Shown piece by piece: positions 5,113 to 62,892 of a stretch of DNA of 64,000 nucleotides (its first letter is position 1; every line of letters starts with the position of its first letter). Origin of the DNA: Bacteroidaceae bacterium (lineage in GTDB: Bacteria; Bacteroidota; Bacteroidia; Bacteroidales; Bacteroidaceae); assembly GCA_017555875.1 (NCBI GenBank), contig JAFZFN010000029.1, forward strand, positions 15,100 through 79,099, given 5' to 3'. The notes beneath the pieces were generated by a model. The model was not told the origin of the DNA. It did not search any database and saw nothing but the letters and a program-made list of their open reading frames with translations. Position numbers and translations under genes: made by a program.

Positions 5113-8100
5113 TTAGTTAAACGAGTATTCTACCCCCTCTACGCTCTTGATGTAGCTGACGAGCTTGTTGGTGGCGGTGATTTTGCATGTCTTCGATTTG
5201 AGGAGGACTTGATGCTGCCCCTCGCCTTCACGGATGTGGATGTGGAGGTCTGTCTTGCCGGGAGACTCCTTGATTAGTGTGATTAGGTCGTCAACCAGCT
5301 CTTCGCTCAGGTGCTCGGCAAGGATGGTGATGGTCATCGACTGCAAGAGGGTGTCCTTGACATCGGGGAGGAGCTCGACGGAGCCTACCTTGAGTTCATA
5401 GGTGTCGCCTACCTTGCCATAAAAGTTGCGCGGTGTGATGCGGCCACGGATAAAGAGGAAATAGCCCTCTTTCATGTAGTTGCTCCATCTCATCCAATCG
5501 TCGCCAAATAGGGCTACTTCGTAGGTACCTGAAAAATCCTCTATCTTGGTGATGCCGAAGGGCTTGTTGGTCTTGGTGAAGGCACTGCGTGTACCTGTTA
5601 CGACACCGCCAAGGGTGACATCGCGCTCCTCCTTCTTGTTCAAGACCTCGGGCATCTCTGCCAGATGTAAGGAGCATACGTCCTCGAGGATGATGCGATA
5701 ATCGTCGAGTGGATGGGCTGAGAGGTAGATGCCTACGAGGTCGCGCTCCTTGTTGAGTCGCTCGATGGTGGACCATGCGGGCACCTCTTCAGGTATCTTG
5801 GGGCGGGCAATAGCATCGGTCATGCTGGCCATGCCGAAGAGCGAGTTCATGGCTTGGGCACGCTCGGTCTGTACCAACGAACCGTAGCGGATAAGGATGT
5901 CGAGGAAGCCTTCCTTCTTGGCATTCTCGGCGAAGTAGTCTTCTCGCTTCATGTCGCTGAAGCAGTCAAACCCGCCTGAGAGGGCCAAGCACTCGAGGTT
6001 CTTGCGGTTGCAGGCCTGTAGGTTCACACGCTCTACAAAGTCGTAGATGTTCTTGTAAGGTCCATTGGCCTCGCGCTCACGGATGATGGCCTCTACGGCA
6101 CCTTCGCCCACGCCCTTTACACCTCCTAGACCGAAGCGGATGTCGCCCTTGGCATTGACTGAGAACTTCATGTAACTCTCGTTTACATCTGGTCCCAATA
6201 CATTGATGCCCATAGCCTTGCACTCGTCCATGAGCTTGGTGATTTCGTCGATGCGCGAGAGGTTGCGCGAGAGGTTGGCAGCCATGTACTGCGGGGGATA
6301 GTTGGCTTTGAGGTAGGCGGTCTGGTAGGCTACCCAGGAGTAGCAGGTGGCATGGCTCTTGTTGAAGGCATAGGAGGCAAACTTCTCCCAGTCGCCCCAG
6401 ATTTTGTCAAGGATCTTCGGGTCGTGACCATTCTTCTTGCCGCCCTCGATGAACTTGGGCTTCATCTTGTCTACGATATCCTTCTTCTTCTTACCCATCG
6501 CCTTACGTAGGGCATCGGACTCACCGCGGGTGAAGTCGGCCAGCTGGCGTGAGAGCAACATCACCTGCTCCTGGTATACGGTGATGCCGTATGTGTCCTT
6601 CAGGTACTTCTCCATACAATCGATATCGTACTCGATGGGCTTGCGGCCATGCTTACGGTCGATAAAGTCGGGAATATAGTCCATCGGTCCCGGGCGATAG
6701 AGCGCGTTCATGGCGATAAGGTCCTCGAAGGTTGATGGCTGTAGCTCGCGTAGGTATTTCTGCATGCCGGGCGACTCGAACTGGAAGGTACCGATGGTCT
6801 TGCCCTCGCAGTAGAGCTGATACGTCTTGGGATCCTCGATGGAGATGCTGTCGATGTCGATGTCGATGCCAAGGCTCTGCTTCACATTGGCCACAGCCTC
6901 CTTGATGATGGAGAGCGTCTTCAGACCGAGGAAGTCCATCTTGATGAGCCCGGTGTCCTCAATCACGCTGCCCTCGTACTGTGTTACGAGGAGCTTCTCG
7001 CCCGTTTCCTTATCGTCTGCCGTGCTCACAGGCACCCAGTCGGTGATGTCGTCGCGACAGATAATAGTACCACAGGCATGCACACCAGTGCCACGCACGT
7101 TGCCCTCGAGCATCTTGGCATACTTGATGGTATCGCGTAGCACGGGGTCGGGTGATGTCTCGGCCTCCTGCAGTTCGGGGATGGCTTCGATGGCATTGGT
7201 AAGGTTGAGTTTCTTGTCGGGGAGCTTGTCGGGGATGAGCTTGCAGAGGTAGTTGGCACGGTCGAGTGGTAGCTTCTGCACACGAGCTACATCCTTAAGC
7301 GCCATCTTGGTCGCCATGGTGCCGTAGGTGATGATGTGGGCTACCTTCTCGGCACCATATTTCTCGGTTACCCAGCGCAACACCTCACCGCGGCCATCAT
7401 CGTCGAAGTCCACGTCGATATCGGGGAGCGAGATACGGTCGGGATTGAGGAAACGCTCAAACAGCAGATCATACTTGATGGGGTCGATGCGCGTAATCTC
7501 CAGGCAGTAGGCCACGGCCGAGCCTGCGGCCGAGCCACGGCCCGGACCCACGGATACGCCCAGCAAGTTGCGGGCTGCCCAGATGAAGTCTTGCACGATG
7601 AGGAAGTAGCCAGGGAATCCCATCGTCTTCATGATGTGGAGCTCGAAGATGAGGCGGTCCTCAATCTCGGGAGTCATCACGGGGTAGTACTTCTTGGCAC
7701 CATCCATCGTGAGCTTCTTCAGGTAGTCGGCTTCGAGCTTGATGCGGTAGAGCTTGTCGTAGCCGCCGAGCTTCTCGATCTTGGCCTCTGCGTCGGCCTG
7801 AGAGAGTACCACGTTACCCTTTTCGTCTCGGGTGAACTCATTGAAGAGGTCCTCTTCGGTATATTGTTTGCGGTACTCCTCCTCGGTGCCGAAGTCAGTG
7901 GGAATCTCGAAGTTGGGCATGATGGGTGGATTGTCTATAGAGTAGAACTCCACCTGGTCGCATATCTTCACCGTGTTGGCTAGGGCCTCGGGAATGTGTC
8001 CGAAGATAGCGTTCATCTCTGCCGTCGTCTTCATCCATTCCTGTTTGGAGTAGAGCATGCGGGTGGGGTCGTCGAGGTCCTTGCCCGTAGAGAGACAGAT

Positions 8101-15623: not shown

Positions 15624-15902
15624 GGAAATATTTAGTAGCTAATGTATAAAAACATCGATTTCATCGGTGTTTTTTTGTGTTTTTATAGCTGCTATTATGC
15701 TGGTGTGTCTATGAGTTTAGGTGGGTGTGTCTATTCTGTATGTAAACAAAAACTTTTTTCGATTAAAGCATAATTTTACCTGTATATATAGAATTTTACC
15801 CCTATATGTGTTTTGTCCCTATGTGAGTGAATGTGGCTTGTATTTTGACAGAACTCGAAATAAAACGCGAAATTTGCACTCGAAACAATCGAAAATAAAA
15901 AG

Positions 15903-19790: not shown

Positions 19791-20672
19791 ATGCACAAAG
19801 CAGGATTTGTAAATATCGTGGGAAACCCCAATGTGGGTAAGTCGACACTGATGAACAAGTTTGTCGGTGAACGTATCTCCATAGCCACCTTCAAGGCACA
19901 GACCACCCGTCACCGTATCATGGGTATTGTCAATACGGAGGACATGCAGATTGTCTTCTCCGACACACCTGGTGTGCTCAAGCCTAACTACAAGCTGCAG
20001 GAGTCGATGCTTCAGTTCTCTGAGTCGGCTTTGCAGGATGCCGATGTTCTCGTCTACGTGACCGACGTAGTGGAGAAGATCGACAAGAACCAGGACTTCC
20101 TCCAGAAGGTACAGCGCATGGATGTGCCCATCCTCTTGCTCATCAATAAGATTGACATGAGCAATCAGAAGGAGTTGACCGCTCTCGTCGAGGAGTGGCA
20201 CGAGCTGCTTCCTCAGGCAGAGATTATCCCCATCTCGGCATCAAACAACTTCAATGTTGACGTGGTGCTCCGCCGTATCAAGGATCTGCTGCCCGATAGT
20301 CCTCCCTTTTTCGACAAGGATCAGCTGACCGATAAGCCCGCCCGCTTCTTCGTCACCGAGATTATCCGCGAGAAGATACTCCTCTATTATGACAAGGAGA
20401 TACCCTACGCCTGCGAGGTGAGTGTCGAGCAATTCAAGGAGACTGAGAAGAACATCCACATCAATGCTATCATCTATGTGGAGCGTGAGTCTCAGAAGGG
20501 CATCATCATCGGCAATCAGGGCAAGGCGCTGAAGAAGGTGATGACCGAGGCACGCCGCACATTGGAGCAGTTCTTCGGCAAGAGCATCTTCCTTGAGACG
20601 TTTGTGAAAGTAGATAAGGACTGGCGCAATTCAGACAAGGAGCTGCGCAGTTTTGGATATAACCTTGAATAA
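19791..20672 (+). CDS. era: GTPase Era
   Basis: G1 motif GNPNVGKST, the DTPG motif, and a C-terminal KH domain. Confidence 0.95.
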   Translation: MHKAGFVNIVGNPNVGKSTLMNKFVGERISIATFKAQTTRHRIMGIVNTEDMQIVFSDTPGVLKPNYKLQESMLQFSESALQDADVLVYVTDVVEKIDKNQDFLQKVQRMDVPILLLINKIDMSNQKELTALVEEWHELLPQAEIIPISASNNFNVDVVLRRIKDLLPDSPPFFDKDQLTDKPARFFVTEIIREKILLYYDKEIPYACEVSVEQFKETEKNIHINAIIYVERESQKGIIIGNQGKALKKVMTEARRTLEQFFGKSIFLETFVKVDKDWRNSDKELRSFGYNLE

Positions 20673-20760
20673 AATTAGGAGTTAGGAATTAGAAATTAGG
20701 AGTTGAAACTCCACGAAGCCCACCGGGGCAATAAAATTCCTAATTCCTAATTCCTAACTT
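20673..20760. repeat. Inverted repeat with 7-bp tandem heptads (TTAGGAA/AATTCCT x3) in the era-der spacer
   Basis: The arms aattaggagttaggaattagaaattaggagtt and aattcctaattcctaattcctaactt enclose a short ggagttgaaactcc hairpin. Confidence 0.6.
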
Positions 20761-20768
20761 AGTAAGAC

Positions 20769-22082
20769 ATGGGAAACTTAGTAGCAATCGTAGGACGCCC
20801 CAATGTGGGTAAGTCCACACTTTTTAACCGCTTCACACAGACCCGTCACGCCATCGTGGCCGATGAGGCTGGTACCACCCGCGACCGTCAGTATGGCAAG
20901 TGCGAATGGACGGGTCGTGAGTTCTCTATCGTTGACACCGGTGGTTGGGTGGTCAACTCTGACGATATCTTCGAAGAGGAGATACGCAAGCAGGTGCTCA
21001 TCGCCGTAGAGGAGGCCGATGTGGTGCTCTTCCTCGTTGACGTGCAGAATGGTGTCACCGACCTCGACATGCAGGTAGCCTCTATCCTTCGTCGTGCCAA
21101 GACACCCGTCATCCTTGTGTCAAACAAAACCGACAACTACGACCTGCAGTACAATGCTGCCGAGTTCTACTCGCTTGGCTTGGGCGACCCCTTCTGCGTG
21201 TCGGCACTCACGGGTAGCGGTACGGGCGACCTGCTCGATATGGTCGTAGAGAAGCTCCCTGCTCCCACCCCCGATGAGGAGACTGAGGAGATACCCCGCT
21301 TCGCTGTCGTAGGTCGTCCCAACGTGGGCAAGAGCTCTATTGTGAACGCCTTCATCGGTGAGGACCGCAACATCGTGACCAATATCGCCGGTACTACCCG
21401 CGACTCCATCTATACCCGCTATACCAAGTTCGGTTTCGACTTCTATCTCGTCGATACTGCTGGTATCCGCAAGAAGGGTAAGGTGAATGAGGACCTCGAG
21501 TTCTACTCTGTGATGCGCTCTATCCGCGCCATTGAGAATGCCGATGTCTGTATCCTCATGCTCGACGCCACACGCGGTATCGAGAGCCAGGATCTCAACA
21601 TCTACTCGCTCGTGCAGCGCAACCAGAAGGGCCTTGTGGTAGTCATCAATAAGTGGGACCTCGTGGAGGACAAGAGCACCAAGGCGATGAAGTACTTCGA
21701 GGACACCATCCGCGAGCGCTTCGCCCCCTTCACCGACTTCCCCATCATTTTCGCGTCGGCCCTCACCAAGCAGCGCATCTTCAAGGTGCTCGAGATGGCC
21801 AAGGAGACCTATCTGAACCGCAACACCAAGGTGTCTACCGCGAAGCTCAACGAGGAGATGCTGCCCATCATCGAGGCCACACCTCCCCCCTCAAACAAGG
21901 GTAAGTACATCAAGATTAAGTATTGCATGCAGCTGCCTGGCACACGCGTACCTTCGTTCGTGTTCTTTGCCAACCTGCCGCAGTATGTGAAGGAGCCCTA
22001 CAAGCGCTTCTTGGAGAACAAGATCCGCGAGCGTTGGGACTTTACAGGTACTCCTATTAATATCTATATTCGCCAGAAGTAA
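20769..22082 (+). CDS. der: Ribosome biogenesis GTPase Der (EngA)
   Basis: Two tandem GTPase domains, each with GRPNVGKS, followed by a KH-like C-terminus. Confidence 0.95.
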
Positions 22083-28953: not shown

Positions 28954-29439
28954 GTGACGCACGAAGAATTCAAAAGGCGGTTTATGCCGTTGCAGAGCAT
29001 GCTGTATCGCGAAGCATATAAGGTGCTGGGCGATGCGTTCGAGGCTGAGGATGCCGTGCAAAACATGTATGTGCGTCTGTGGGAGCAGAAGGAGGAGCTA
29101 GGACACATCGTGTCGCCCGAGGCCTATTGCCGCACGATGCTCAAGCGCATCTGCATCGACCGTTGGCGGAGGATGAGGGCGCGGGCCGAGGATGTGGAGC
29201 TCATAGAAGAGATTGTCGATGCCAATGCTCCACCCGACGCAGAGCGTGAGGAGACGGCGGAGTTTCTCGAACATTTCCTCGCCAACCTCCCCGACCGACA
29301 ACAACGGGTGATGCGGATGACGATGCAGGGAAACACGGCGGAGGAGATTGCCGAGGCCACACGATTGAGTGTGGGGAATGTGAGGACCATCGTGTCACGC
29401 ATGAGGCAGAGATTTAAGGAATTGTATTATAAACGATAA
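28954..29439 (+). CDS. ECF-type RNA polymerase sigma factor
   Basis: Sigma-70 region 2 (YREAYKVLGDAFEAEDAVQNMYVRLW) and region 4 (RQQRVMRMTMQGNTAEEIAEATRLSVGNVR). Confidence 0.85.
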   Translation: MTHEEFKRRFMPLQSMLYREAYKVLGDAFEAEDAVQNMYVRLWEQKEELGHIVSPEAYCRTMLKRICIDRWRRMRARAEDVELIEEIVDANAPPDAEREETAEFLEHFLANLPDRQQRVMRMTMQGNTAEEIAEATRLSVGNVRTIVSRMRQRFKELYYKR

Positions 29440-29451
29440 GGAGTTTGAACT

Positions 29452-30042
29452 ATGGAAAAGGAAATTCTGAAGGAATGGATGGAGCGCTTCTTCCTCGCCG
29501 AACTGACGGTGGATGAGGAGCGTGAGCTGTGCCAGTTTCTTTGCGCGAATGAGGTTCCTGCCGAACTCCGTAAGGACAAGGAGGTTATCATCGCCCTGTG
29601 TGGTACGCCCGAAGAGGATATTGCGCTCCCCGAAGGTGCTGCCGAACGGCTGGAGGCTATGCTCGATGGGCTGGAGGAAATGAAGACCCACCTAAATCCT
29701 TCCTGCAAGGGAGGACTTGAGGCTCCGCCACGCAGACGCACCCTCCCTCACAGGGAGGGATGGGGTGGGTCTTTCCTTCTCCGTGCCGCATGTGTAGCTG
29801 GTGTGGTCGTAGCGCTCTTCGTGGCGCTCCCTGATAGGGTGGCCGAGCCTTTGCTCTCTGAGACATACGAGGAAGAGGACACCTTTGACAATCCCGAGGA
29901 GGCGATGCAGTGCCTCATGGCGGCCTATGGCGATATCCGATATGCGATGAACACAACGCAGCACCACACACAGGAGGCGTGTCAAACGCTGGAGCAGTCG
30001 CAATCAATAATCCGAGAAATGTTTAATATGAATATAAATTGA
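29452..30042 (+). CDS. Putative anti-sigma factor carrying an in-frame 87-bp palindromic-element insertion
   Basis: It starts 13 bp after the sigma-factor stop. It has one hydrophobic segment. Residues 79-107 are encoded by the repeat element. Confidence 0.5.
   Translation: MEKEILKEWMERFFLAELTVDEERELCQFLCANEVPAELRKDKEVIIALCGTPEEDIALPEGAAERLEAMLDGLEEMKTHLNPSCKGGLEAPPRRRTLPHREGWGGSFLLRAACVAGVVVALFVALPDRVAEPLLSETYEEEDTFDNPEEAMQCLMAAYGDIRYAMNTTQHHTQEACQTLEQSQSIIREMFNMNIN
29686..29772. mobile_element. 87-bp nested palindromic (MITE/RPE-like) element, copy A, in-frame inside the putative anti-sigma CDS
   Basis: Terminal arms acccacc/ggtgggt and inner arms cctgcaagggagg/cctccctcacaggg. About 85 percent identical to 37741-37827. 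Confidence 0.8.
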
Positions 30043-30049
30043 CGCGAAT

Positions 30050-30601
30050 ATGAAACGATACATAGTGTTAACTTTGATGCTACTCACGCTTCACGCGGGC
30101 ACTCTACTTGCCCAGTCGGCACAGCCTCGAGAGAAGAGCGAAGTGGAGGTGTTCATGCAGCAGGTGGCAAAGGCCGTTGCCAAGTCCAACGAGATTGACT
30201 ATGCCTACATCTCTACAAGCATGTTCAAGCAGTTGCTATCTCAGTTTTTAACAATGGTAAATGATAGTATCGAAATCCACGACCAGGTGGAACAAATATT
30301 TGGCTCGGCCATGTATATGCGCCGATTCATCAGTACGGGCATCGAAGGCTACAAGGTGTTAGAAGTAGCCATGCATCCATTTTGGGGATTCTTAGAGGAA
30401 AAAGAAGAGGTTATGGGCATGGAGTTGTGCGCCCTCAACCGAGAAAACGGAGTGGTTTCGATAATTTATGGCAACTCTGATAGTGTGCTTGTCATCAACA
30501 ACAATAGCAATGCCTTGAACTATAATATAGTGTTTGTTGCGGGATTGTCGTACGAAGCCTTTATGGAGTTGGATAAGAGTGGCATAGACTTAGGATTTTG
30601 A
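30050..30601 (+). CDS. DUF4252-like secreted protein
   Basis: Signal peptide, 183 aa. It sits downstream of the ECF sigma/anti-sigma pair, as DUF4252 genes usually do. Confidence 0.5.
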   Translation: MKRYIVLTLMLLTLHAGTLLAQSAQPREKSEVEVFMQQVAKAVAKSNEIDYAYISTSMFKQLLSQFLTMVNDSIEIHDQVEQIFGSAMYMRRFISTGIEGYKVLEVAMHPFWGFLEEKEEVMGMELCALNRENGVVSIIYGNSDSVLVINNNSNALNYNIVFVAGLSYEAFMELDKSGIDLGF

Positions 30602-32119: not shown

Positions 32120-32281
32120 CTTGAGGTTAAACCACAGATTACACGGATTACACAGATAAGTCCAAGAATCTATTAATAGAAAGACGAATTGTAGATGCGA
32201 TATTTTCTCGTAAAAGAATCTGAGAAATCGGTGCAATCTGTGGTTTAGAGAAAGAATGAATAACGTTAAACATAAAGAACT

Positions 32282-33571: not shown

Positions 33572-35539
33572 ATGGAAATAAACGAAGAAATCAAAGCAAA
33601 CGCAGCGAGCAACTACTCGGCGGAAAACATTCAGGTACTCGAGGGTCTTGAGGCCGTACGTAAGCGCCCTGCGATGTACATCGGCGACATCAGCGCCAAG
33701 GGTCTGCATCACCTGGTATACGAGGTTGTGGACAACTCTATCGACGAAGCCCTCGCAGGCTATTGCAGCCACATCGAGGTGTTCATCAATGAAGACAACT
33801 CTATCACCGTACAGGACAATGGTCGTGGTATCCCCGTCGACTGGCACGAGAAGGAGCAGCGCTCTGCGCTCGAGGTGGTGATGACGGTGCTCCACGCAGG
33901 TGGTAAGTTTGACAAGGGCTCCTACAAGGTGTCTGGCGGTCTGCACGGTGTGGGTGTATCGTGCGTGAACGCGCTCTCTACCCATATGAAGACACAGGTA
34001 TTCCGTGGCGGTAAAATCTACCAGCAGGAATACTCATGCGGTAAGCCCCTCTACGCCGTGAAGACCGTGGGCGATGCCGACCGCACGGGTACACGTCAGC
34101 AGTTCTGGCCCGACCGCTCCATCTTCACCGCACACGAGTATAGCTACGACATCCTCGCCAACCGTATGCGCGAGCTGGCATTCCTCAATGCAGGTATCAC
34201 CATCACGCTCACCGACCTCCGCGAGAAGGACGAGGAGGGCAACGTACGCACCGAGACCTTCCACTCGGAGGAGGGCTTGAGAGAGTTCGTGCGCTTCGTG
34301 GACTCATCACGCGAGCATCTCTTCAATGACATCATCTACCTCAACACCGAGAAGCAGGGTGTACCCATCGAGGTGGCTATCATGTACAACACGTCGTACT
34401 CTGAGAACATCCACTCCTATGTAAACAATATCAACACCATCGAGGGTGGTACACACCTCGCAGGTTTCCGCACCGCGCTGACCCGTACACTCAAGAAGTA
34501 CGCCGAAGACACCAAGGCACTGGAGAAGGCCAAGGTGGAGATTGCCGGTGAGGACTTCCGCGAGGGATTGACCGCCGTAATCTCTATCAAGGTGGCTGAG
34601 CCTCAGTTTGAGGGACAGACCAAGACCAAGCTCGGTAACTCCGAGGTGGCAGGTGCCGTGCAGCAGGCTGTGGCAGAGACCCTCACCAACTACCTCGAGG
34701 AGCATCCCAAGGAGGCCAAGATGATCGTGGACAAGGTGGTGCTCGCCGCACAGGCTCGTATCGCAGCCCGCAAGGCTCGCGAGAGCGTGCAGCGCAAGAA
34801 TCCCATGAGCGGTGGCGGACTCCCCGGTAAGCTGGCCGACTGCTCCGACAAGGATCCCATGAACTGTGAGCTCTTCATCGTCGAGGGAGACTCGGCCGGT
34901 GGATCAGCCAAGCAGGGTCGCTCACGACTCACACAGGCTATCCTCCCCATCCGCGGTAAGATCTTCAACGTGGAGCGCGTGATGTGGCACAAGGCCTTCG
35001 AGCATGAGGAGGTGAACAACATCATCCAGGCACTCGGCGTGCGCTTCGGACTCAACCCCGAGGACAGCAAGGAGGCCAACTACGACAAGCTGCGCTACTA
35101 CAAGACCATCATCATGACCGATGCCGACGTCGATGGTTCGCACATCGACACCCTCTTGATGACCCTCTTCTATCGCTACATGCCCGAACTCATCGAGAAC
35201 GGACATCTCTTCATCGCTACGCCGCCCCTCTACCTCTGCAGCAAGGGCAAGAACAAGCGCTACTGCTACGACGATGCCGACAAGGATCGCTTCATCGCCG
35301 AGTTTGGTAACGGCAGCGAGGCGGGCATCACCATCCAGCGCTATAAGGGTCTTGGTGAGATGAACCCCGAGCAGCTGTGGGAGACTACCATGAACCCCGA
35401 GACACGCCTCCTCAAGCAGGTGACCATCGAGAATGCCGCCGCAGCCGACTACGTGTTCTCTATGCTCATGGGTGAGGATGTAGGCCCCCGTCGCGAGTTC
35501 ATCGAGAAGAACGCCACTTACGCTAACATCGACGCATAA
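33572..35539 (+). CDS. gyrB: DNA gyrase subunit B
   Basis: GHKL ATPase motifs (GLHHLVYEVVDNSIDE, GGLHGVG), a TOPRIM domain (EGDSAGG), and the C-terminal tail. Confidence 0.95.
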   Translation: MEINEEIKANAASNYSAENIQVLEGLEAVRKRPAMYIGDISAKGLHHLVYEVVDNSIDEALAGYCSHIEVFINEDNSITVQDNGRGIPVDWHEKEQRSALEVVMTVLHAGGKFDKGSYKVSGGLHGVGVSCVNALSTHMKTQVFRGGKIYQQEYSCGKPLYAVKTVGDADRTGTRQQFWPDRSIFTAHEYSYDILANRMRELAFLNAGITITLTDLREKDEEGNVRTETFHSEEGLREFVRFVDSSREHLFNDIIYLNTEKQGVPIEVAIMYNTSYSENIHSYVNNINTIEGGTHLAGFRTALTRTLKKYAEDTKALEKAKVEIAGEDFREGLTAVISIKVAEPQFEGQTKTKLGNSEVAGAVQQAVAETLTNYLEEHPKEAKMIVDKVVLAAQARIAARKARESVQRKNPMSGGGLPGKLADCSDKDPMNCELFIVEGDSAGGSAKQGRSRLTQAILPIRGKIFNVERVMWHKAFEHEEVNNIIQALGVRFGLNPEDSKEANYDKLRYYKTIIMTDADVDGSHIDTLLMTLFYRYMPELIENGHLFIATPPLYLCSKGKNKRYCYDDADKDRFIAEFGNGSEAGITIQRYKGLGEMNPEQLWETTMNPETRLLKQVTIENAAAADYVFSMLMGEDVGPRREFIEKNATYANIDA

Positions 35540-35562
35540 GACGTCGCCAGACCTCTTACATT

Positions 35563-35600
35563 ATAGAAGATATCACGCGCGAGCAGTCTGCTGGTGCGTG
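35563..35600 (+). terminator. Rho-independent terminator after gyrB
   Basis: Hairpin atcacgcgcgagcagtctgctggtgcgtgat followed by tcttttt. Confidence 0.65.
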
Positions 35601-35719
35601 ATTCTTTTTGTACAATCTCGAAAAAAGAGAATAATTCAGCATTTTTATGCATTTTATCATGAAAAGTTGCTAACTTTACGCATCTTTATCATAATAGGCA
35701 TATTAAATAGCAATATACA

Positions 35720-36850
35720 ATGTCAGTAACCATCAAACCCGTAACTACGAAGAAAGAGATGAAGCAGTTCATCTGCTTCAACTACGAATTATACAAGGAC
35801 TCGCCCTACGCGGTGCCTGAGCTATTCACCGATGTGCGCGACACGCTTGACCCCAAGAAGAATGCAGCGTTCGAGTTTTGCGAGGCGCAGCCCTTCATCG
35901 CCATCAAGGACGGCAAGGTCGTGGGGCGCATCGTGGCCATCATCAACCACAAGGCCAATGCGCGTTGGGAGAAGAAGGTGGTACGCTTCGGATGGGTCGA
36001 CTTCATCGATGATGCCGAAGTGGTGGATGCTCTCTTTGCTACCGTGGAGCAGTGGGGTAAGGAACGCGGCATGGAGGAGGTGAACGGCCCGCTGGGCTTC
36101 ACCGACTTTGACCCCGAAGGAATGCTTATCGAGGGATTCGACCGCATAGGCACCATGGCCACCATATACAACTATCCCTACTACCCTCAGCACATGGAGC
36201 GTATGGGCTATGAGAAGGATGCCGACTGGCAGGAGTATCTGCTGACCACACCTGACGCGCTCCCCGATAAGCATGCCCGCGTGGCACGCATCGTGAAAGA
36301 ACGCTTTGGACTAAAAGTGGTGAAGTATACCTCACACCGCAAGCTGGCCAAGGAGCGTGGCGTGGCCATCTTCGAACTGCTCAATGAAGCTTATGCTCAC
36401 CTCTATGGCTACTCGGCACTCTCACCCCAGCAGATACAGCAATACATCGCGGCATACCTACCATTGCTCGACCTCCGCTTGGTGCCCATCATCGTGGACA
36501 AGGACGACAACCTCGTGGGCTTCGGCGTGTTGCTGCCCTCACTTGCCAAAGCATTCCAGAAGGCGCGGGGATTCATGTTTCCCTTCGGCTGGTGGCACCT
36601 CATCAAGGCGCTCAAGTGGAACGACACACAAACATCAGAGATGCTGCTCGTGGCCGTGAAACCCGAGTATCAAGGCAAGGGTGCCGTAGCGCTGATATTC
36701 GAAGATATCATTCCCGTGCATAGCAAGTTGGGATACAGGTACTCGGAGAGTAATCCCGAACTGGAGGTCAACACCAAGATGCAGTCACAGTGGGACTACT
36801 TCGAGCGTGAGAACCACAAGCGCCGCCGTGCCTTTAAGAAAGAATTATAA
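35720..36850 (+). CDS. Hypothetical protein, possibly a GNAT-fold acyltransferase family member
   Basis: 376 aa with no diagnostic motif seen. The GNAT-like resemblance is from memory. Confidence 0.3.
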   Translation: MSVTIKPVTTKKEMKQFICFNYELYKDSPYAVPELFTDVRDTLDPKKNAAFEFCEAQPFIAIKDGKVVGRIVAIINHKANARWEKKVVRFGWVDFIDDAEVVDALFATVEQWGKERGMEEVNGPLGFTDFDPEGMLIEGFDRIGTMATIYNYPYYPQHMERMGYEKDADWQEYLLTTPDALPDKHARVARIVKERFGLKVVKYTSHRKLAKERGVAIFELLNEAYAHLYGYSALSPQQIQQYIAAYLPLLDLRLVPIIVDKDDNLVGFGVLLPSLAKAFQKARGFMFPFGWWHLIKALKWNDTQTSEMLLVAVKPEYQGKGAVALIFEDIIPVHSKLGYRYSESNPELEVNTKMQSQWDYFERENHKRRRAFKKEL

Positions 36851-36862
36851 AACAGACTACAT

Positions 36863-37177
36863 ATGTATAGCATTACAACCAACAAGAGCGGTACACGCAG
36901 CATCGCCGTCAGCGACGAGCACTTGTGCACCATAGAGAAGTATCAACTGTTTACAGGCCTCGTAGGCAGCAACGGCATCGTAGATGAGGAAGTTCTCAAC
37001 AAACTGAAGCTCACCGTGCGCTCGCTCATCGCCTCACAAGAGGAGTGCAAAGACCTGCTGAGTCTTTGTGTCGACGTGCTCTACCACGACAACATGAAGG
37101 CCATTGGCCTCAGTGCGCTCATGGCACTCTACAATGAGTGGCTCGCAGTACGCGAACAAACACAAAGCGAAGAATAA
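36863..37177 (+). CDS. Small hypothetical protein translationally coupled (TAATG) to ygiQ
   Basis: 104-aa ORF whose stop overlaps the ygiQ start codon. Confidence 0.35.
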   Translation: MYSITTNKSGTRSIAVSDEHLCTIEKYQLFTGLVGSNGIVDEEVLNKLKLTVRSLIASQEECKDLLSLCVDVLYHDNMKAIGLSALMALYNEWLAVREQTQSEE

Positions 37178-39060
37178 TGCCCCAACTGACGGATTTTCTC
37201 CCTACGACGCGCAAGGAGATGGAGATGCGCGGATGGGACGAGGTGGATGTGGTGCTCTTCTCGGGCGATGCCTACGTGGACCATCCCTCGTTTGGTGCTG
37301 CCGTAATAGGTCGCATACTCGAGGCCGAAGGACTGCGCGTGGCCATCGTGCCCCAACCCAACTGGCGTGACGACCTGCGCGACTTCCGTAAGATGGGGCG
37401 TCCACGCCTCTTCTTTGGCGTCACGGCAGGATGCATGGACTCAATGGTGAACAAGTATACGGCCAACAAACGCCTGCGCAGCGAAGATGCCTACACACCC
37501 GACGGACGACACGATCTACGACCCGAATATCCGTCAATCGTATATACACAAATACTCAAACGCCTCTACCCCGATGTGCCCGTAGTGCTGGGCGGCATAG
37601 AGGCATCAATGCGTCGTCTCACCCACTATGACTACTGGCAAGACTGCGTGCGCCGCAGCATCCTCTGCGATAGTGGCGCCGACATCCTCGTCTATGGCAT
37701 GGGCGAGAAACCAATAGTGGAGATTGCTAGGCGATTGCAGACCCACCTAAATTCTCCCTGTGAGGGAGGACTTGAAGCTCCGCGATGTCAGCACCCCCTC
37801 CCTCACAGGGAGGGATGGGGTGGGTCTTCCATTCCTCAAACCGCCATCCTCTACCCCAACAAGGAGTCCATACCAGGCGGAATAACTACAGAGGATATCG
37901 TGCTCAACAGCCATGAGCAATGCCTACGCGACAAACGTGCCGAGGCGGCCAACTTCCGCCATATCGAGGAAGAATCAAACAAACTGCACGCCTCGCGCCT
38001 CATACAAGAGGTTGAGGGAAAGTGCGTGGTGGTCAATGCTCCCTATCCCCCCATGACGACGGAGGAGTTGGATCACTCGTTCGACTTGCCCTACACCCGA
38101 CTGCCTCACCCGAGATACAAAGGTAAGCGCATCCCCGCCTACGATATGATCAAGCACTCGGTAAATATCCATCGCGGATGTTTTGGTGGTTGTGCCTTCT
38201 GCACCATATCGGCCCATCAAGGCAAGTTCATCGTGAGCCGCAGCAAGGAGAGCATACTCAAAGAGGTAAAAGCCGTGGCTCAGCTGCCCGACTTCAAGGG
38301 CTACCTAAGTGACCTCGGAGGTCCCTCGGCCAACATGTATGGCATGGGCGGCAAGGATAAAACGCTTTGCGCCCGTTGTAAGCGCCCCTCATGCATACAC
38401 CCTAAGGTGTGTCCTAACCTCAACACAAACCATCGACCATTGCTCGACATATACCATGCCGTAGATGCACTGCCCGAGATAAAGAAGAGCTTTATAGGCA
38501 GCGGTGTGCGTTACGACTTGCTGCTACATCGTAGCGACGATGAGGCCGTGAATCGCGCGGCCAAGGAATATACGCAGGAACTTATCACACACCATGTGAG
38601 CGGTCGCCTCAAAGTAGCGCCCGAGCACACTTCCGATGCAGTGTTGCACATCATGCGCAAGCCTTCGTTTGAGCAGTTCGAGCAGTTTAAGCGTATCTTT
38701 GATCGCATCAATCGTGAAGAGAACCTCCGTCAGCAGATCATTCCCTATTTTATCAGCAGCCATCCAGGCTGTACAGCTGAGGATATGGCCGAACTGGCTG
38801 TGCTCACCAAGCGTATGGATTTCCATCTTGAGCAGGTGCAGGACTTCACGCCCACGCCCATGACCGTGAGCACTGAGGCTTGGCATACGGGCTTTCATCC
38901 CTACACGTTGCAGCCCATCTTCTCGGCCAAGTCGCAGCGTGACAAACTCGCCCAACGCCAGTTCTTCTTCTGGTACAAACCCGAGATGCGACGCACCATC
39001 ATGGAGGAGCTACGCCGCATGGGACGCCGCGACCTCATAGACAAACTATTTGGTAGATGA
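37177..39060 (+). CDS. ygiQ: YgiQ-family (UPF0313) radical SAM protein with an in-frame palindromic-element insertion
   Basis: N-terminal domain and radical SAM CxxxCxxC (CFGGCAFC). The element is inserted in the linker before the radical SAM core. Confidence 0.85.
   Translation: MPQLTDFLPTTRKEMEMRGWDEVDVVLFSGDAYVDHPSFGAAVIGRILEAEGLRVAIVPQPNWRDDLRDFRKMGRPRLFFGVTAGCMDSMVNKYTANKRLRSEDAYTPDGRHDLRPEYPSIVYTQILKRLYPDVPVVLGGIEASMRRLTHYDYWQDCVRRSILCDSGADILVYGMGEKPIVEIARRLQTHLNSPCEGGLEAPRCQHPLPHREGWGGSSIPQTAILYPNKESIPGGITTEDIVLNSHEQCLRDKRAEAANFRHIEEESNKLHASRLIQEVEGKCVVVNAPYPPMTTEELDHSFDLPYTRLPHPRYKGKRIPAYDMIKHSVNIHRGCFGGCAFCTISAHQGKFIVSRSKESILKEVKAVAQLPDFKGYLSDLGGPSANMYGMGGKDKTLCARCKRPSCIHPKVCPNLNTNHRPLLDIYHAVDALPEIKKSFIGSGVRYDLLLHRSDDEAVNRAAKEYTQELITHHVSGRLKVAPEHTSDAVLHIMRKPSFEQFEQFKRIFDRINREENLRQQIIPYFISSHPGCTAEDMAELAVLTKRMDFHLEQVQDFTPTPMTVSTEAWHTGFHPYTLQPIFSAKSQRDKLAQRQFFFWYKPEMRRTIMEELRRMGRRDLIDKLFGR
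37741..37827. mobile_element. 87-bp nested palindromic element, copy B (the more intact copy), in-frame inside ygiQ
   Basis: Terminal arms acccacc/ggtgggt and perfect inner arms ccctgtgagggagg/cctccctcacaggg. Confidence 0.85.
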
Positions 39061-41387: not shown

Positions 41388-41458
41388 TTGTCCTACCTGG
41401 ATTCGAACCAAGACAAACAGAACCAAAACCTGTTGTGCTACCATTACACCATAGGACA
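41388..41458 (-). tRNA. tRNA-Gln (anticodon UUG)
   Basis: Manual cloverleaf: acceptor TGTCCTA/TAGGACA with U1:A72, anticodon loop TTTTGGT, and T-loop GGTTCGAATCC. Confidence 0.8.
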
Positions 41459-50014: not shown

Positions 50015-50884
50015 GGTATATCTGTCTTTTTAGGTTCATTCCTACTTTACGCTACAAACTTATACAAAAAATGTGATTCCACCTTCCAGTTAGCCAAAAA
50101 AGTGATTACCCACAGATGGTATTTCCTCGCATCGCGTCAGCAAATTCGTGTGCGTAAACAAATTCATGGCTGATTCGCGGGTAATTCATGGACATTCATG
50201 TCCAAAAGAAAAAAGAAAGCGATTTTTTATGAATAAATATCCAGCGGCCCAATCCTATATACGTCAATGAAGCGTGCCTCCCATGTTGAATATACACTTC
50301 CTATTTGCCGAAGCCTATCGGCAACGCTGCCGAAGCGCATCAACCACGTTGCCGATAGGCAACAGCAGCGCTGCCGTTGCCCATCGGCAAATAACTTTGC
50401 AGGCAAAGCATACATCGCTTCGCTTGTATGTGCCTCCGGATGAGGGCTGCGAGCGTTAGCTATGCAGACTCTACGCTCTCTGCGCGGACACCGACTGACA
50501 GGTGAAATCGTACGCAGTGTCCGCCATTAGGCAGTAGATAGTCAGCGTGTTGACCCATGTTGGCGGACGGTGGCAGGTGGAAAAGCCGATGACACTATCG
50601 CGTAGCGAGGACTCGCGAGTAAACGTCGATTCCGTTACATAAAAAAATCACCCGAACCGTTGCGTAAGTGCCAAACAATTAGTACCTTTGCGCCCGAAAA
50701 TTGCTCTCCCCGCAAGGTGAGATGCATGTGCTGATGATGTAAATGTTTGTGTTATAATATGTTATAATGCGAACCAATGCTGTGAAAAGACGTAAAGATG
50801 TAGGCGGAAAAGGAATCAAAGAAGGAATCAAATAGGAATCAAATTTATTATTTTTTTATTACCAATTTTATTAATTAATCATTT

Positions 50885-54771: not shown

Positions 54772-54949
54772 TCTGACACGTAACCCCATAGGGTAGCCTC
54801 ACCGAGGCAATGCCCATACATACAGTAGCGAGGATGCATAAGCGTCCTCGCTACTCGTTTCATGGCACGCAAGCCGCAAATCCGTGTAATCTGTGTAATC
54901 TGTGGTTAAAAATAAAAAATTCGTGACGAATGCCTCTGGATATATATTC

Positions 54950-55448: not shown

Positions 55449-55521
55449 CGGAAAGTAGCGCAGTTGGTAGCGCACTACGTTCGGGACGTAGGGGTCGGGC
55501 GTTCGAGTCGCCTCTTTCCGA
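55449..55521 (+). tRNA. tRNA-Pro (anticodon CGG)
   Basis: Manual cloverleaf: C1:G72 acceptor CGGAAAG/CTTTCCG, D-arm GCGC-AGTTGGTA-GCGC, anticodon loop TTCGGGA, T-loop TTCGAGT. Confidence 0.8.
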
Positions 55522-62535: not shown

Positions 62536-62609
62536 GCCTCTTTAGCTCAGTTGGCCAGAGCACGTGATTTGTAATCTCGGGGTCGTTGGTTCGAATCCGA
62601 CAAGAGGCT
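62536..62609 (+). tRNA. tRNA-Thr (anticodon UGU)
   Basis: Acceptor GCCTCTT/AAGAGGC, anticodon loop TTTGTAA, T-loop TTCGAAT. There is one U-U mismatch in the anticodon stem. Confidence 0.7.
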
Positions 62610-62640
62610 CAAAAGAAAGTGATCTTTAAATTATTGAATC

Positions 62641-62723
62641 GGGCAAATTCCAGAGTGGCCAAATGGGGCAGACTGTAAATCTGCTGTCTTTCGACTTCGG
62701 TGGTTCGAATCCATCTTTGCCCA
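62641..62723 (+). tRNA. tRNA-Tyr (anticodon GUA), with a long variable arm
   Basis: Acceptor GGGCAAA/TTTGCCC, anticodon stem GCAGA/TCTGC, loop CTGTAAA, class II variable arm. Confidence 0.8.
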
Positions 62724-62736
62724 CACTCAGAAAGAT

Positions 62737-62809
62737 GCGGAAGTAGCTCAGTTGATAGAGCATTAGCCTTCCAAGCTGAGGGTCGCGGGTTTGAGCCCCG
62801 TCTTCCGCT
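62737..62809 (+). tRNA. tRNA-Gly (anticodon UCC)
   Basis: Acceptor GCGGAAG/CTTCCGC and anticodon loop CTTCCAA. Confidence 0.8.
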
Positions 62810-62820
62810 CTTTTGATGTT

Positions 62821-62892
<72 letters not shown>

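Follow-up and report, generated by a model that had tools for sequence, protein, structure and literature searches.

Short palindromic elements, probably mobile, are carried in frame within protein genes of uncultured ruminant-gut Bacteroidaceae

How does an 87-bp palindrome come to lie, with the reading frame kept, in two unrelated genes of one Bacteroidaceae genome, and what kind of element is it? The 64-kb stretch of DNA analysed as a whole (hereafter the window) carries two copies, A and B, the former in the gene that follows an ECF sigma factor gene and the latter in ygiQ. The relevant features are as follows:

28954-29439, plus strand: ECF-type sigma factor gene (Sigma70_r2, Sigma70_r4_2), upstream of the copy A host
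29452-30042, plus strand: host gene of copy A, directly downstream of the ECF sigma gene, 196-aa protein
29682-29774, plus strand: copy A, whole palindromic element including the RRA/TYY flank consensus
29685-29771: conserved core of copy A, GACCCACC...GGTGGGTC
29685-29715, plus strand: left unit of copy A, TAAAT-type arm, GACCCACC-TAAAT-CCTTCCT-GCA-AGGGAGG-A (nhmmer E = 7e-8)
29716-29740, plus strand: variable centre of copy A, CTTGAGGCTCCGCCACGCAGACGCA, diverging from copy B and from the L013 and L064 alleles
29741-29771, plus strand: right unit of copy A, CCCTCCCT-CAC-AGGGAGGG-ATGG-GGTGGGTC, the reverse complement of the unit consensus
29753-29769: G-quadruplex-type motif GGGAGGGATGGGGTGGG in the right arm of copy A
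37177-39060, plus strand: host gene of copy B, YgiQ-family radical SAM protein, 627 aa from the ATG at 37177
37737-37829, plus strand: copy B, whole element in ygiQ (core 37740-37826; units 37740-37770 and 37796-37826)
37808-37824: G-quadruplex-type motif GGGAGGGATGGGGTGGG in the right arm of copy B

The original prediction described an 87-bp palindrome that leaves the frame of the ORF after the sigma factor gene intact, and both the sequence and its translation are as described. It placed the element at 29686-29772; the sequence is indeed there, but the conserved palindrome covers 29685-29771 and its flanks extend to 29682-29774. The second copy, expected in ygiQ at about 85% identity and in the same relative frame, was recovered by a repeat search of the window: copies A and B are 84% identical over 99 nt (29681-29779 versus 37736-37834), the longest direct repeat in the window, and are translated in the same phase, G/ACC/CAC, into THLNPSCKGGLEAPPRRRTLPHREGWGGS and THLNSPCEGGLEAPRCQHPLPHREGWGGS, respectively. 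Their 30-nt right arm is the same, with no match in 100 shuffles. An apparent third copy at 15715 turned out to be a chance 12-mer with one mismatch. Folding of both RNA (copy A, −53.4 kcal/mol, z = −5.6; copy B, −56.2 kcal/mol, z = −5.8) and DNA (copy A, −24.7 kcal/mol, z about −4.6; copy B, −27.4 kcal/mol, z about −5.0) yields long, strong hairpins which no shuffle equalled. The two G-quadruplex-type motifs are the only canonical ones on either strand of the window. No Rfam family matches the element; the only hits above the gathering threshold in the window are six tRNAs, of which four form a cluster at 62536-62892 and the others lie at 55449-55521 and 41388-41458.

The protein encoded by the copy A host gene, which matches an NCBI entry of a Bacteroidaceae MAG (P0121) at 100% identity, has no Pfam hit, and it is from gene position and architecture only that we infer, reasonably, an anti-sigma factor. 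The element provides residues 79-107 and ends just before a hydrophobic helix, FLLRAACVAGVVVALFVAL. On the 3′ side of this gene, a 183-aa ORF (30050-30601) has a weak DDE_Tnp_1_3 match (18.4 bits versus a cut-off of 27), which is probably spurious, because orthologous genes in loci L059, L060 and L086 have no Pfam hit. The identity of the copy B host is clear from its Radical_SAM_N match (E = 4e−127). Here the element corresponds to residues 189-217, between the helix ..EKPIVEIARRLQ and the strand IPQTAILY. The Radical_SAM_N match spans 322 residues of the window protein versus 301 profile positions, and in E. coli YgiQ the corresponding stretch is unrelated and contains nothing equivalent to the insert peptide, which agrees with the earlier proposal that the 29-aa segment is an insertion rather than ancestral protein sequence. 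An AlphaFold model of YgiQ built with 45 close homologues shows low-confidence coil over residues 190-222, although at a mean pLDDT of 46.7 it is too poor to place the insert in a surface loop; a search of solved structures found no YgiQ homologue. In both window genes the element takes the place of a short variable linker instead of being cleanly added, so that the junctions are not defined by an exact empty site.

To see how widely the element is distributed, we used 24 nt of the right arm to scan GTDB genomes, one for each species. This gave 50 loci, all from Bacteroidaceae/Prevotellaceae/Bacteroidales MAGs, for which the informative isolate names point mostly to the gut of yak, sheep, goat, roe deer and buffalo. 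A metagenome scan with the left arm added 23 loci, bringing the total beyond the window to 73, as would be expected from the original prediction of further copies. There are three to six exact-arm loci per MAG, which is a lower bound. No extra copies were present in five 5-22-kb ygiQ loci from other lineages, and none were found in viral contigs or in plasmid and phage collections. Since copies were gathered by exact-arm patterns, the arms are invariant by ascertainment, and arm-conservation and length-class statistics are possibly inflated.

A profile of the repeated unit (nhmmer) resolved the element into a doublet, with two inverted 31-nt units around a centre that varies in length and sequence. 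With this profile, 52 doublets and 39 singlet hits were found, with total lengths of 78-204 nt. Each unit consists of a 12-13-nt tag, GACCCACCCCAT or GACCCACCTAAAT (that is, GACCCACC-CCAT or GACCCACC-TAAAT), followed by its own 8-bp mini-hairpin, CCCTCCCT-GTG-AGGGAGGG. Single-stranded, the element forms either one long hairpin or an outer stem with two mini-hairpins. Subfamilies are set by the centre. The 87-nt class shares a conserved centre, CTTGARGCTYYGCGATGTCAGNACC, and combines one TAAAT-type with one CCAT-type arm, which gives it a defined orientation. The element has no coding capacity. Its flanks follow the consensus RRA on the left and TYY on the right, and none of the 49 unique copies is bordered by direct repeats of 3, 4 or 5 nt; a 2-nt repeat occurs in 1 of 49, versus 0.4 expected. 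The 204-nt copy at L047:1437-1640 has for its centre a minisatellite of CTCTTTACT-like 9-mers. Several intergenic copies (in L005, L012, L028, L032 and others) are directly followed by a run of seven or eight T (GGTGGGTC-TTTTTTT), and could double as intrinsic terminators.

Copies were considered intragenic if they lay 25 codons or more from the ends of a stop-to-stop ORF of at least 200 aa, a cut-off just above the 196-aa ORF of copy A. By this definition 20 of the 49 unique doublets (~40%) are intragenic, and in the 87-nt class the share is nine of ten. Of ten spanning ORFs searched with Pfam, seven proved to be real host genes, and in each of them the element avoids the recognised domains, lying either beyond them or in the stretch that separates them. 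Among these hosts are a peptidase M16, a BT4734-like protein, a Toprim/DnaB_C primase-helicase, a 1449-aa BcrAD_BadFG+DUF2229 protein that contains two oppositely oriented copies, and a HisD-HisC fusion that has the element where its two parts meet. The last of these (L015:1787-4198, minus strand) is one uninterrupted 804-codon ORF, in which aa 30-436 correspond to histidinol dehydrogenase and aa 502-797 to a class I/II aminotransferase; the 87-nt element lies exactly at their junction, and may have fused hisD and hisC. Recurrent among the hosts are genes of mobile-element replication type, either BT4734-like or primase-helicase (L014:1898-4471, L026:5460-6863, L040:5261-7198, P0244 and P0247), and an 858-aa ORF of this type holds two doublets together with two single units. 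Such genes could carry the element from genome to genome, or could lie close to the source of its mobilisation.

Of the three phases of the 87-nt class, exactly one is stop-free in each orientation. The open phase encodes a peptide of ~29 aa rich in Pro, Gly, Cys and His, THLNPPCEGG..LPHREGWGGS in forward and THPIPPCEGGG..LPHREDLGGS in reverse direction, and both orientations are found inside genes. The use of a single open phase in genes is the pattern expected from selection against truncating insertions. When the two window peptides were searched as a profile against 1.84 billion cluster representatives, only six hits came back, which comprised the anti-sigma family, two replication-type proteins of mobile elements and an unrelated tandem repeat. 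A concatenated element-peptide profile gave one hit among the 35 candidates collected and was uninformative. Both counts underestimate the hosts, the first because representatives at 50% identity are mostly those without the polymorphic insert.

The polymorphism is most evident in ygiQ. We compared 120 YgiQ homologues whose full-length identity to the window protein is 88-99%, or 93-99% without the variable segment; they vary almost solely between ..IARRLQ and IPQTAILY... At least eight unrelated palindromic insert types occupy this linker among orthologues, one of them being the present element reversed. The segment is the element in forward orientation in 8 of the 120 (P0007 was scored as unclassified, and one has a nested insert) and in reversed orientation in 5. 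In 94 it belongs to at least six types unrelated to the element, among them the AT-rich IENEKLKIEN..FSIFNFQ, SPKGEKQ..SPLGGIEGG and PSNSPSMG..EGGGMGGGS. It is short (20 aa or less) in another 8 and falls outside these classes in the remaining 5. Orthologous loci keep the synteny of gyrB, a 376-aa gene, a 104-aa gene and ygiQ, and within this constant setting the linker contains the element in one or the other orientation, a different palindrome or next to nothing. The DNA of each long insert retrieved (L051 and L053-L056) folds into a strong hairpin at −30 to −93 kcal/mol, compared with about −13 kcal/mol for short alleles, and on its right side the reversed copy in L051 is joined to the gene at the same point as copy B. 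Alleles without the element, which the original prediction had anticipated, exist for both window genes: L052 and L057 for ygiQ and L058 for the anti-sigma-like gene.

Most of the 120 closest homologues of the anti-sigma-like protein (65-100% identity) carry the element, which indicates that the insertion in this gene is older. Three alleles have near-identical flanks and different linkers. In L058 the linker is 21 aa long, unrelated and not palindromic; in L059 its place is taken by another small element ("family X"); and in L060 the left arm has given way to another hairpin element. The mismatches in the left inner arm of copy A had been taken for a sign of decay after insertion. This interpretation is supported, because L013 and L064 retain the consensus bases at the altered positions, but the changes in the left unit relative to the family consensus number three, not two.

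How such alleles arise is illustrated by L084, which is 97.5-98% identical to window positions 34893-39056 over 2.8 kb upstream and 1.2 kb downstream of a ~110-125-nt patch in the ygiQ linker. The swapped patch comprises an AT-rich palindrome and ~24 nt of diverged upstream codons, and this clustering of substitutions with the insert points to a short recombination tract between alleles. Recombination of this kind, and not de novo transposition, accounts for much of the diversity of alleles. A further process is nesting. Family X is a separate ~75-nt element with a CGTC-containing hairpin, CCGAYGC-GAAAWGA-GCRTCGG, and its copies are located as follows:

L056:2724-2799: family X, nested in the element in ygiQ
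L086, about 6240-6320: family X, nested in the element in the anti-sigma gene
L059:3227-3292: family X alone, in the anti-sigma linker

Both nested copies sit at the same left-arm position, between GACCCACC and CCCTGTGAGGG, and are ~80% identical to each other. The identical position in two unrelated genes implies that family X either inserts site-specifically into the element or moved together with it as a composite.

The other small palindromic families at these sites have copies elsewhere too, as do three intergenic palindromes of the window. The first of the latter, at 20672-20760, is an AT-rich palindrome with TTAGGAA-like repeat arms in the 96-nt spacer of era (19791-20672) and der (20769-22082), and has a relative at L051:44-151. 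The second, at 32128-32247, is an inverted repeat, TAAACCACAGATTACACGGATTACACAGAT..., with 30-nt arms that are 87% complementary and 60 nt apart; a 24-nt partial copy lies at 54884-54907. The third, at 50302-50393, is a cluster of overlapping palindromes, TGCCGAAGCCTATCGGCAACG..., with a 32-nt relative at L037:1637-1668. In addition, the window contains four tandem units of ~35 nt each with a spacing of 30-36 nt (1094-1230) and two tandem 44-nt units with internal palindromes (2403-2490).

Taken together, these results make it quite probable that the window copies belong to a REPIN/MITE-like family of short, non-coding, non-autonomous palindromic mobile elements which resides in uncultured ruminant-gut Bacteroidaceae/Prevotellaceae and is filtered by selection and shuffled by recombination. 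An element that encodes nothing and leaves no target duplication must have been moved in trans. The mover would most likely be a single-strand-DNA HUH/Y1 transposase of the RAYT/TnpA_REP type, as suggested by the tag-plus-hairpin unit, the doublets, the lack of target duplication, and publications that associate TnpA_REP subclasses of Bacteroidetes with atypical hairpin repeats and record in-frame REP insertions. In ~410 kb (the window and L001-L050), no ORF has the HUH..Y motif [ND]H[LIVFY]H ... Y[IV]xx[NE][PQ], and no transposase was found next to multi-insert loci (ORFs around L047; Pfam searches on the neighbours of L014, L026 and L040). Copies landing in genes would persist only in the single stop-free phase and in tolerant linkers or inter-domain regions. 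After insertion, as the alleles show, they decay, are invaded by other small elements at a fixed left-arm position, are partly deleted and are exchanged between alleles by homologous recombination. Most likely, the elements are selfish and near-neutral and not functional parts of host proteins.

A different view of the same alleles, which we regard as considerably less probable, puts the emphasis on the coding properties of the 87-nt class. Its openness in both orientations could mean that it is a coding-adapted cassette, either targeted to linkers or retained in them, and the linkers themselves would be landing pads shared by unrelated hairpin elements. These elements might insert, invert, nest and replace one another by hairpin-targeted insertion. 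If true, this would amount to an intragenic element ecosystem not described for gut Bacteroidota.

Slightly less plausible again is that the element is a DDE-type MITE, an internally deleted IS whose 31-nt terminal inverted repeats are used by the transposase of a full-length IS elsewhere. Small size, lack of coding capacity, dispersal and long, near-perfect terminal inverted repeats fit such an origin, and large MITE catalogues exist for Bacteroidota (PMC11602168). However, the 49 unique copies are devoid of target-site duplications, and no full-length IS with matching 31-nt ends was seen in the loci examined. Moreover, each arm is a tag-plus-hairpin unit that also occurs alone, which is REP-like and not IS-end-like.

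Could the element do without a dedicated transposase? It would then spread by hairpin-driven template switching or illegitimate recombination, followed only by homologous recombination from allele to allele. The short patch exchanged between 98%-identical alleles together with linked flank substitutions, the presence of both orientations at one site and the replacement of linkers in place of their clean interruption are all compatible with this scenario. Nevertheless, we consider it unlikely, since many unrelated genes and intergenic sites harbour 87-nt copies that are near-identical even in their non-palindromic centre, and homologous recombination cannot produce such copies with unrelated flanks.

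Even less credible is a selected functional module, be it a regulatory mRNA or DNA structure (hairpin or G-quadruplex) or a Cys/His peptide with a role in the host protein. The very stable structure, the confinement of the window's G-quadruplex-type motifs to the elements and the retention of the element in most close anti-sigma homologues might speak for a function. Against it, the same sequence is found in unrelated genes and between genes, orthologues with 93-99% identity carry unrelated inserts or none at the same site, and copy A is gathering stem mismatches. Finally, an assembly or binning artefact can be practically dismissed: every carrier is a MAG or metagenome contig, but independent assemblies, made in different studies and from different hosts, repeatedly show the same junctions, with reading frames kept and orthologous synteny intact.

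If the family is a mobile one, as we think probable, selfish palindromic DNA is written into protein genes outside Rickettsia as well, in abundant uncultured Bacteroidaceae of the ruminant gut. For annotation and for work on protein families this means that where orthologues are nearly identical except for a hypervariable segment of 20-35 aa, as in the YgiQ linker, this segment can be the scar of a mobile element and not a functional variation. The forward, reversed, nested, replaced and empty alleles of one gene also offer tractable polymorphic sites for Bacteroidota, which can be used to learn how hairpin elements that leave no target duplications move and turn over.

Among known systems, the bacterial MITEs (Correia/NEMIS, Nezha and those of Porphyromonas gingivalis) share with the present element the size range, the terminal inverted repeats, the non-autonomy and occasional in-frame or gene-fusing insertions. 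The internal minisatellite of the L047 copy resembles one described for a P. gingivalis MITE (PMC4596501). The form is that of a MITE, with terminal inverted repeats, a length within 50-500 nt and no ORF, whereas the missing target-site duplication, the lack of a cognate IS among the loci and arms that are independent hairpin units set it apart.

The likeness to REPs and REPINs mobilised by RAYTs goes further. Common features are the tag-plus-hairpin unit, inverted doublets forming a long hairpin next to singlets, the absence of target-site duplication, several families per genome and in-frame intragenic copies; the 31-nt unit itself is within the 20-40 nt of REP imperfect palindromes. A TnpA_REP subclass dominated by Bacteroidetes (2.6) is flanked by atypical hairpin repeats, subclasses 2.4 and 2.6 being the Bacteroidetes comparison set (PMC6006769), although the supplement of that study has no relevant match to the unit sequence or to Prevotella. 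Intragenic REPs are known in several species (PMC3733652), and in-frame REP insertions are on record (PMC6006769, PMC3733652). On the other hand, the hairpin of a classical REP has at its 5′ foot the tetranucleotide GTAG (GT[AG]G) or CGTC (PMC6006769), whereas the unit read with its tag at the 5′ side is GACCCACCCCAT-CCCTCCCT-GTG-AGGGAGGG, with GTGG only on the opposite strand and 3′ of the hairpin. REPs are also mostly extragenic, in contrast to the 20 of 49 doublets located in long ORFs here, and the copy number, by the lower bound given above, is apparently far below that of classical REPs. As no transposase was found in the sequence searched and the unit has no GTAG/CGTC tag, we refrain from classing the element as a REP, although its behaviour is that of a REPIN or a Rickettsia palindromic element.

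The original prediction compared the in-frame spread of the palindrome with that of Rickettsia palindromic elements, and the many in-frame intragenic copies bear out the resemblance in behaviour, although as an analogy only and not as membership of that family. Both are short, non-coding palindromes present between genes and in frame in unrelated protein genes, where they add a tolerated peptide, survive only in stop-free phases and decay after insertion; here, too, element-free orthologues of the host genes exist. The Rickettsia families are restricted to that genus, in the Alphaproteobacteria, whereas the present element is found in Bacteroidota, and a relationship in sequence is not to be expected. 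It further differs in its two-unit double mini-hairpin, its variable centre, its apparently low copy number and the competition of several unrelated palindrome families for one intragenic site. The phenomenon was thought to be undescribed for Bacteroidota. We found no description of this element family in the literature searched on Bacteroidota or Prevotella, but in-frame REP insertions had already been recorded, so that it is less unprecedented than originally assumed. As far as this literature shows, then, the element represents an undescribed family of a known kind, the palindromic selfish repeats tolerated in frame in genes; less ordinary are the high intragenic share of its 87-nt class, the phase left open in both orientations and the many unrelated hairpin elements that meet at one ygiQ linker.
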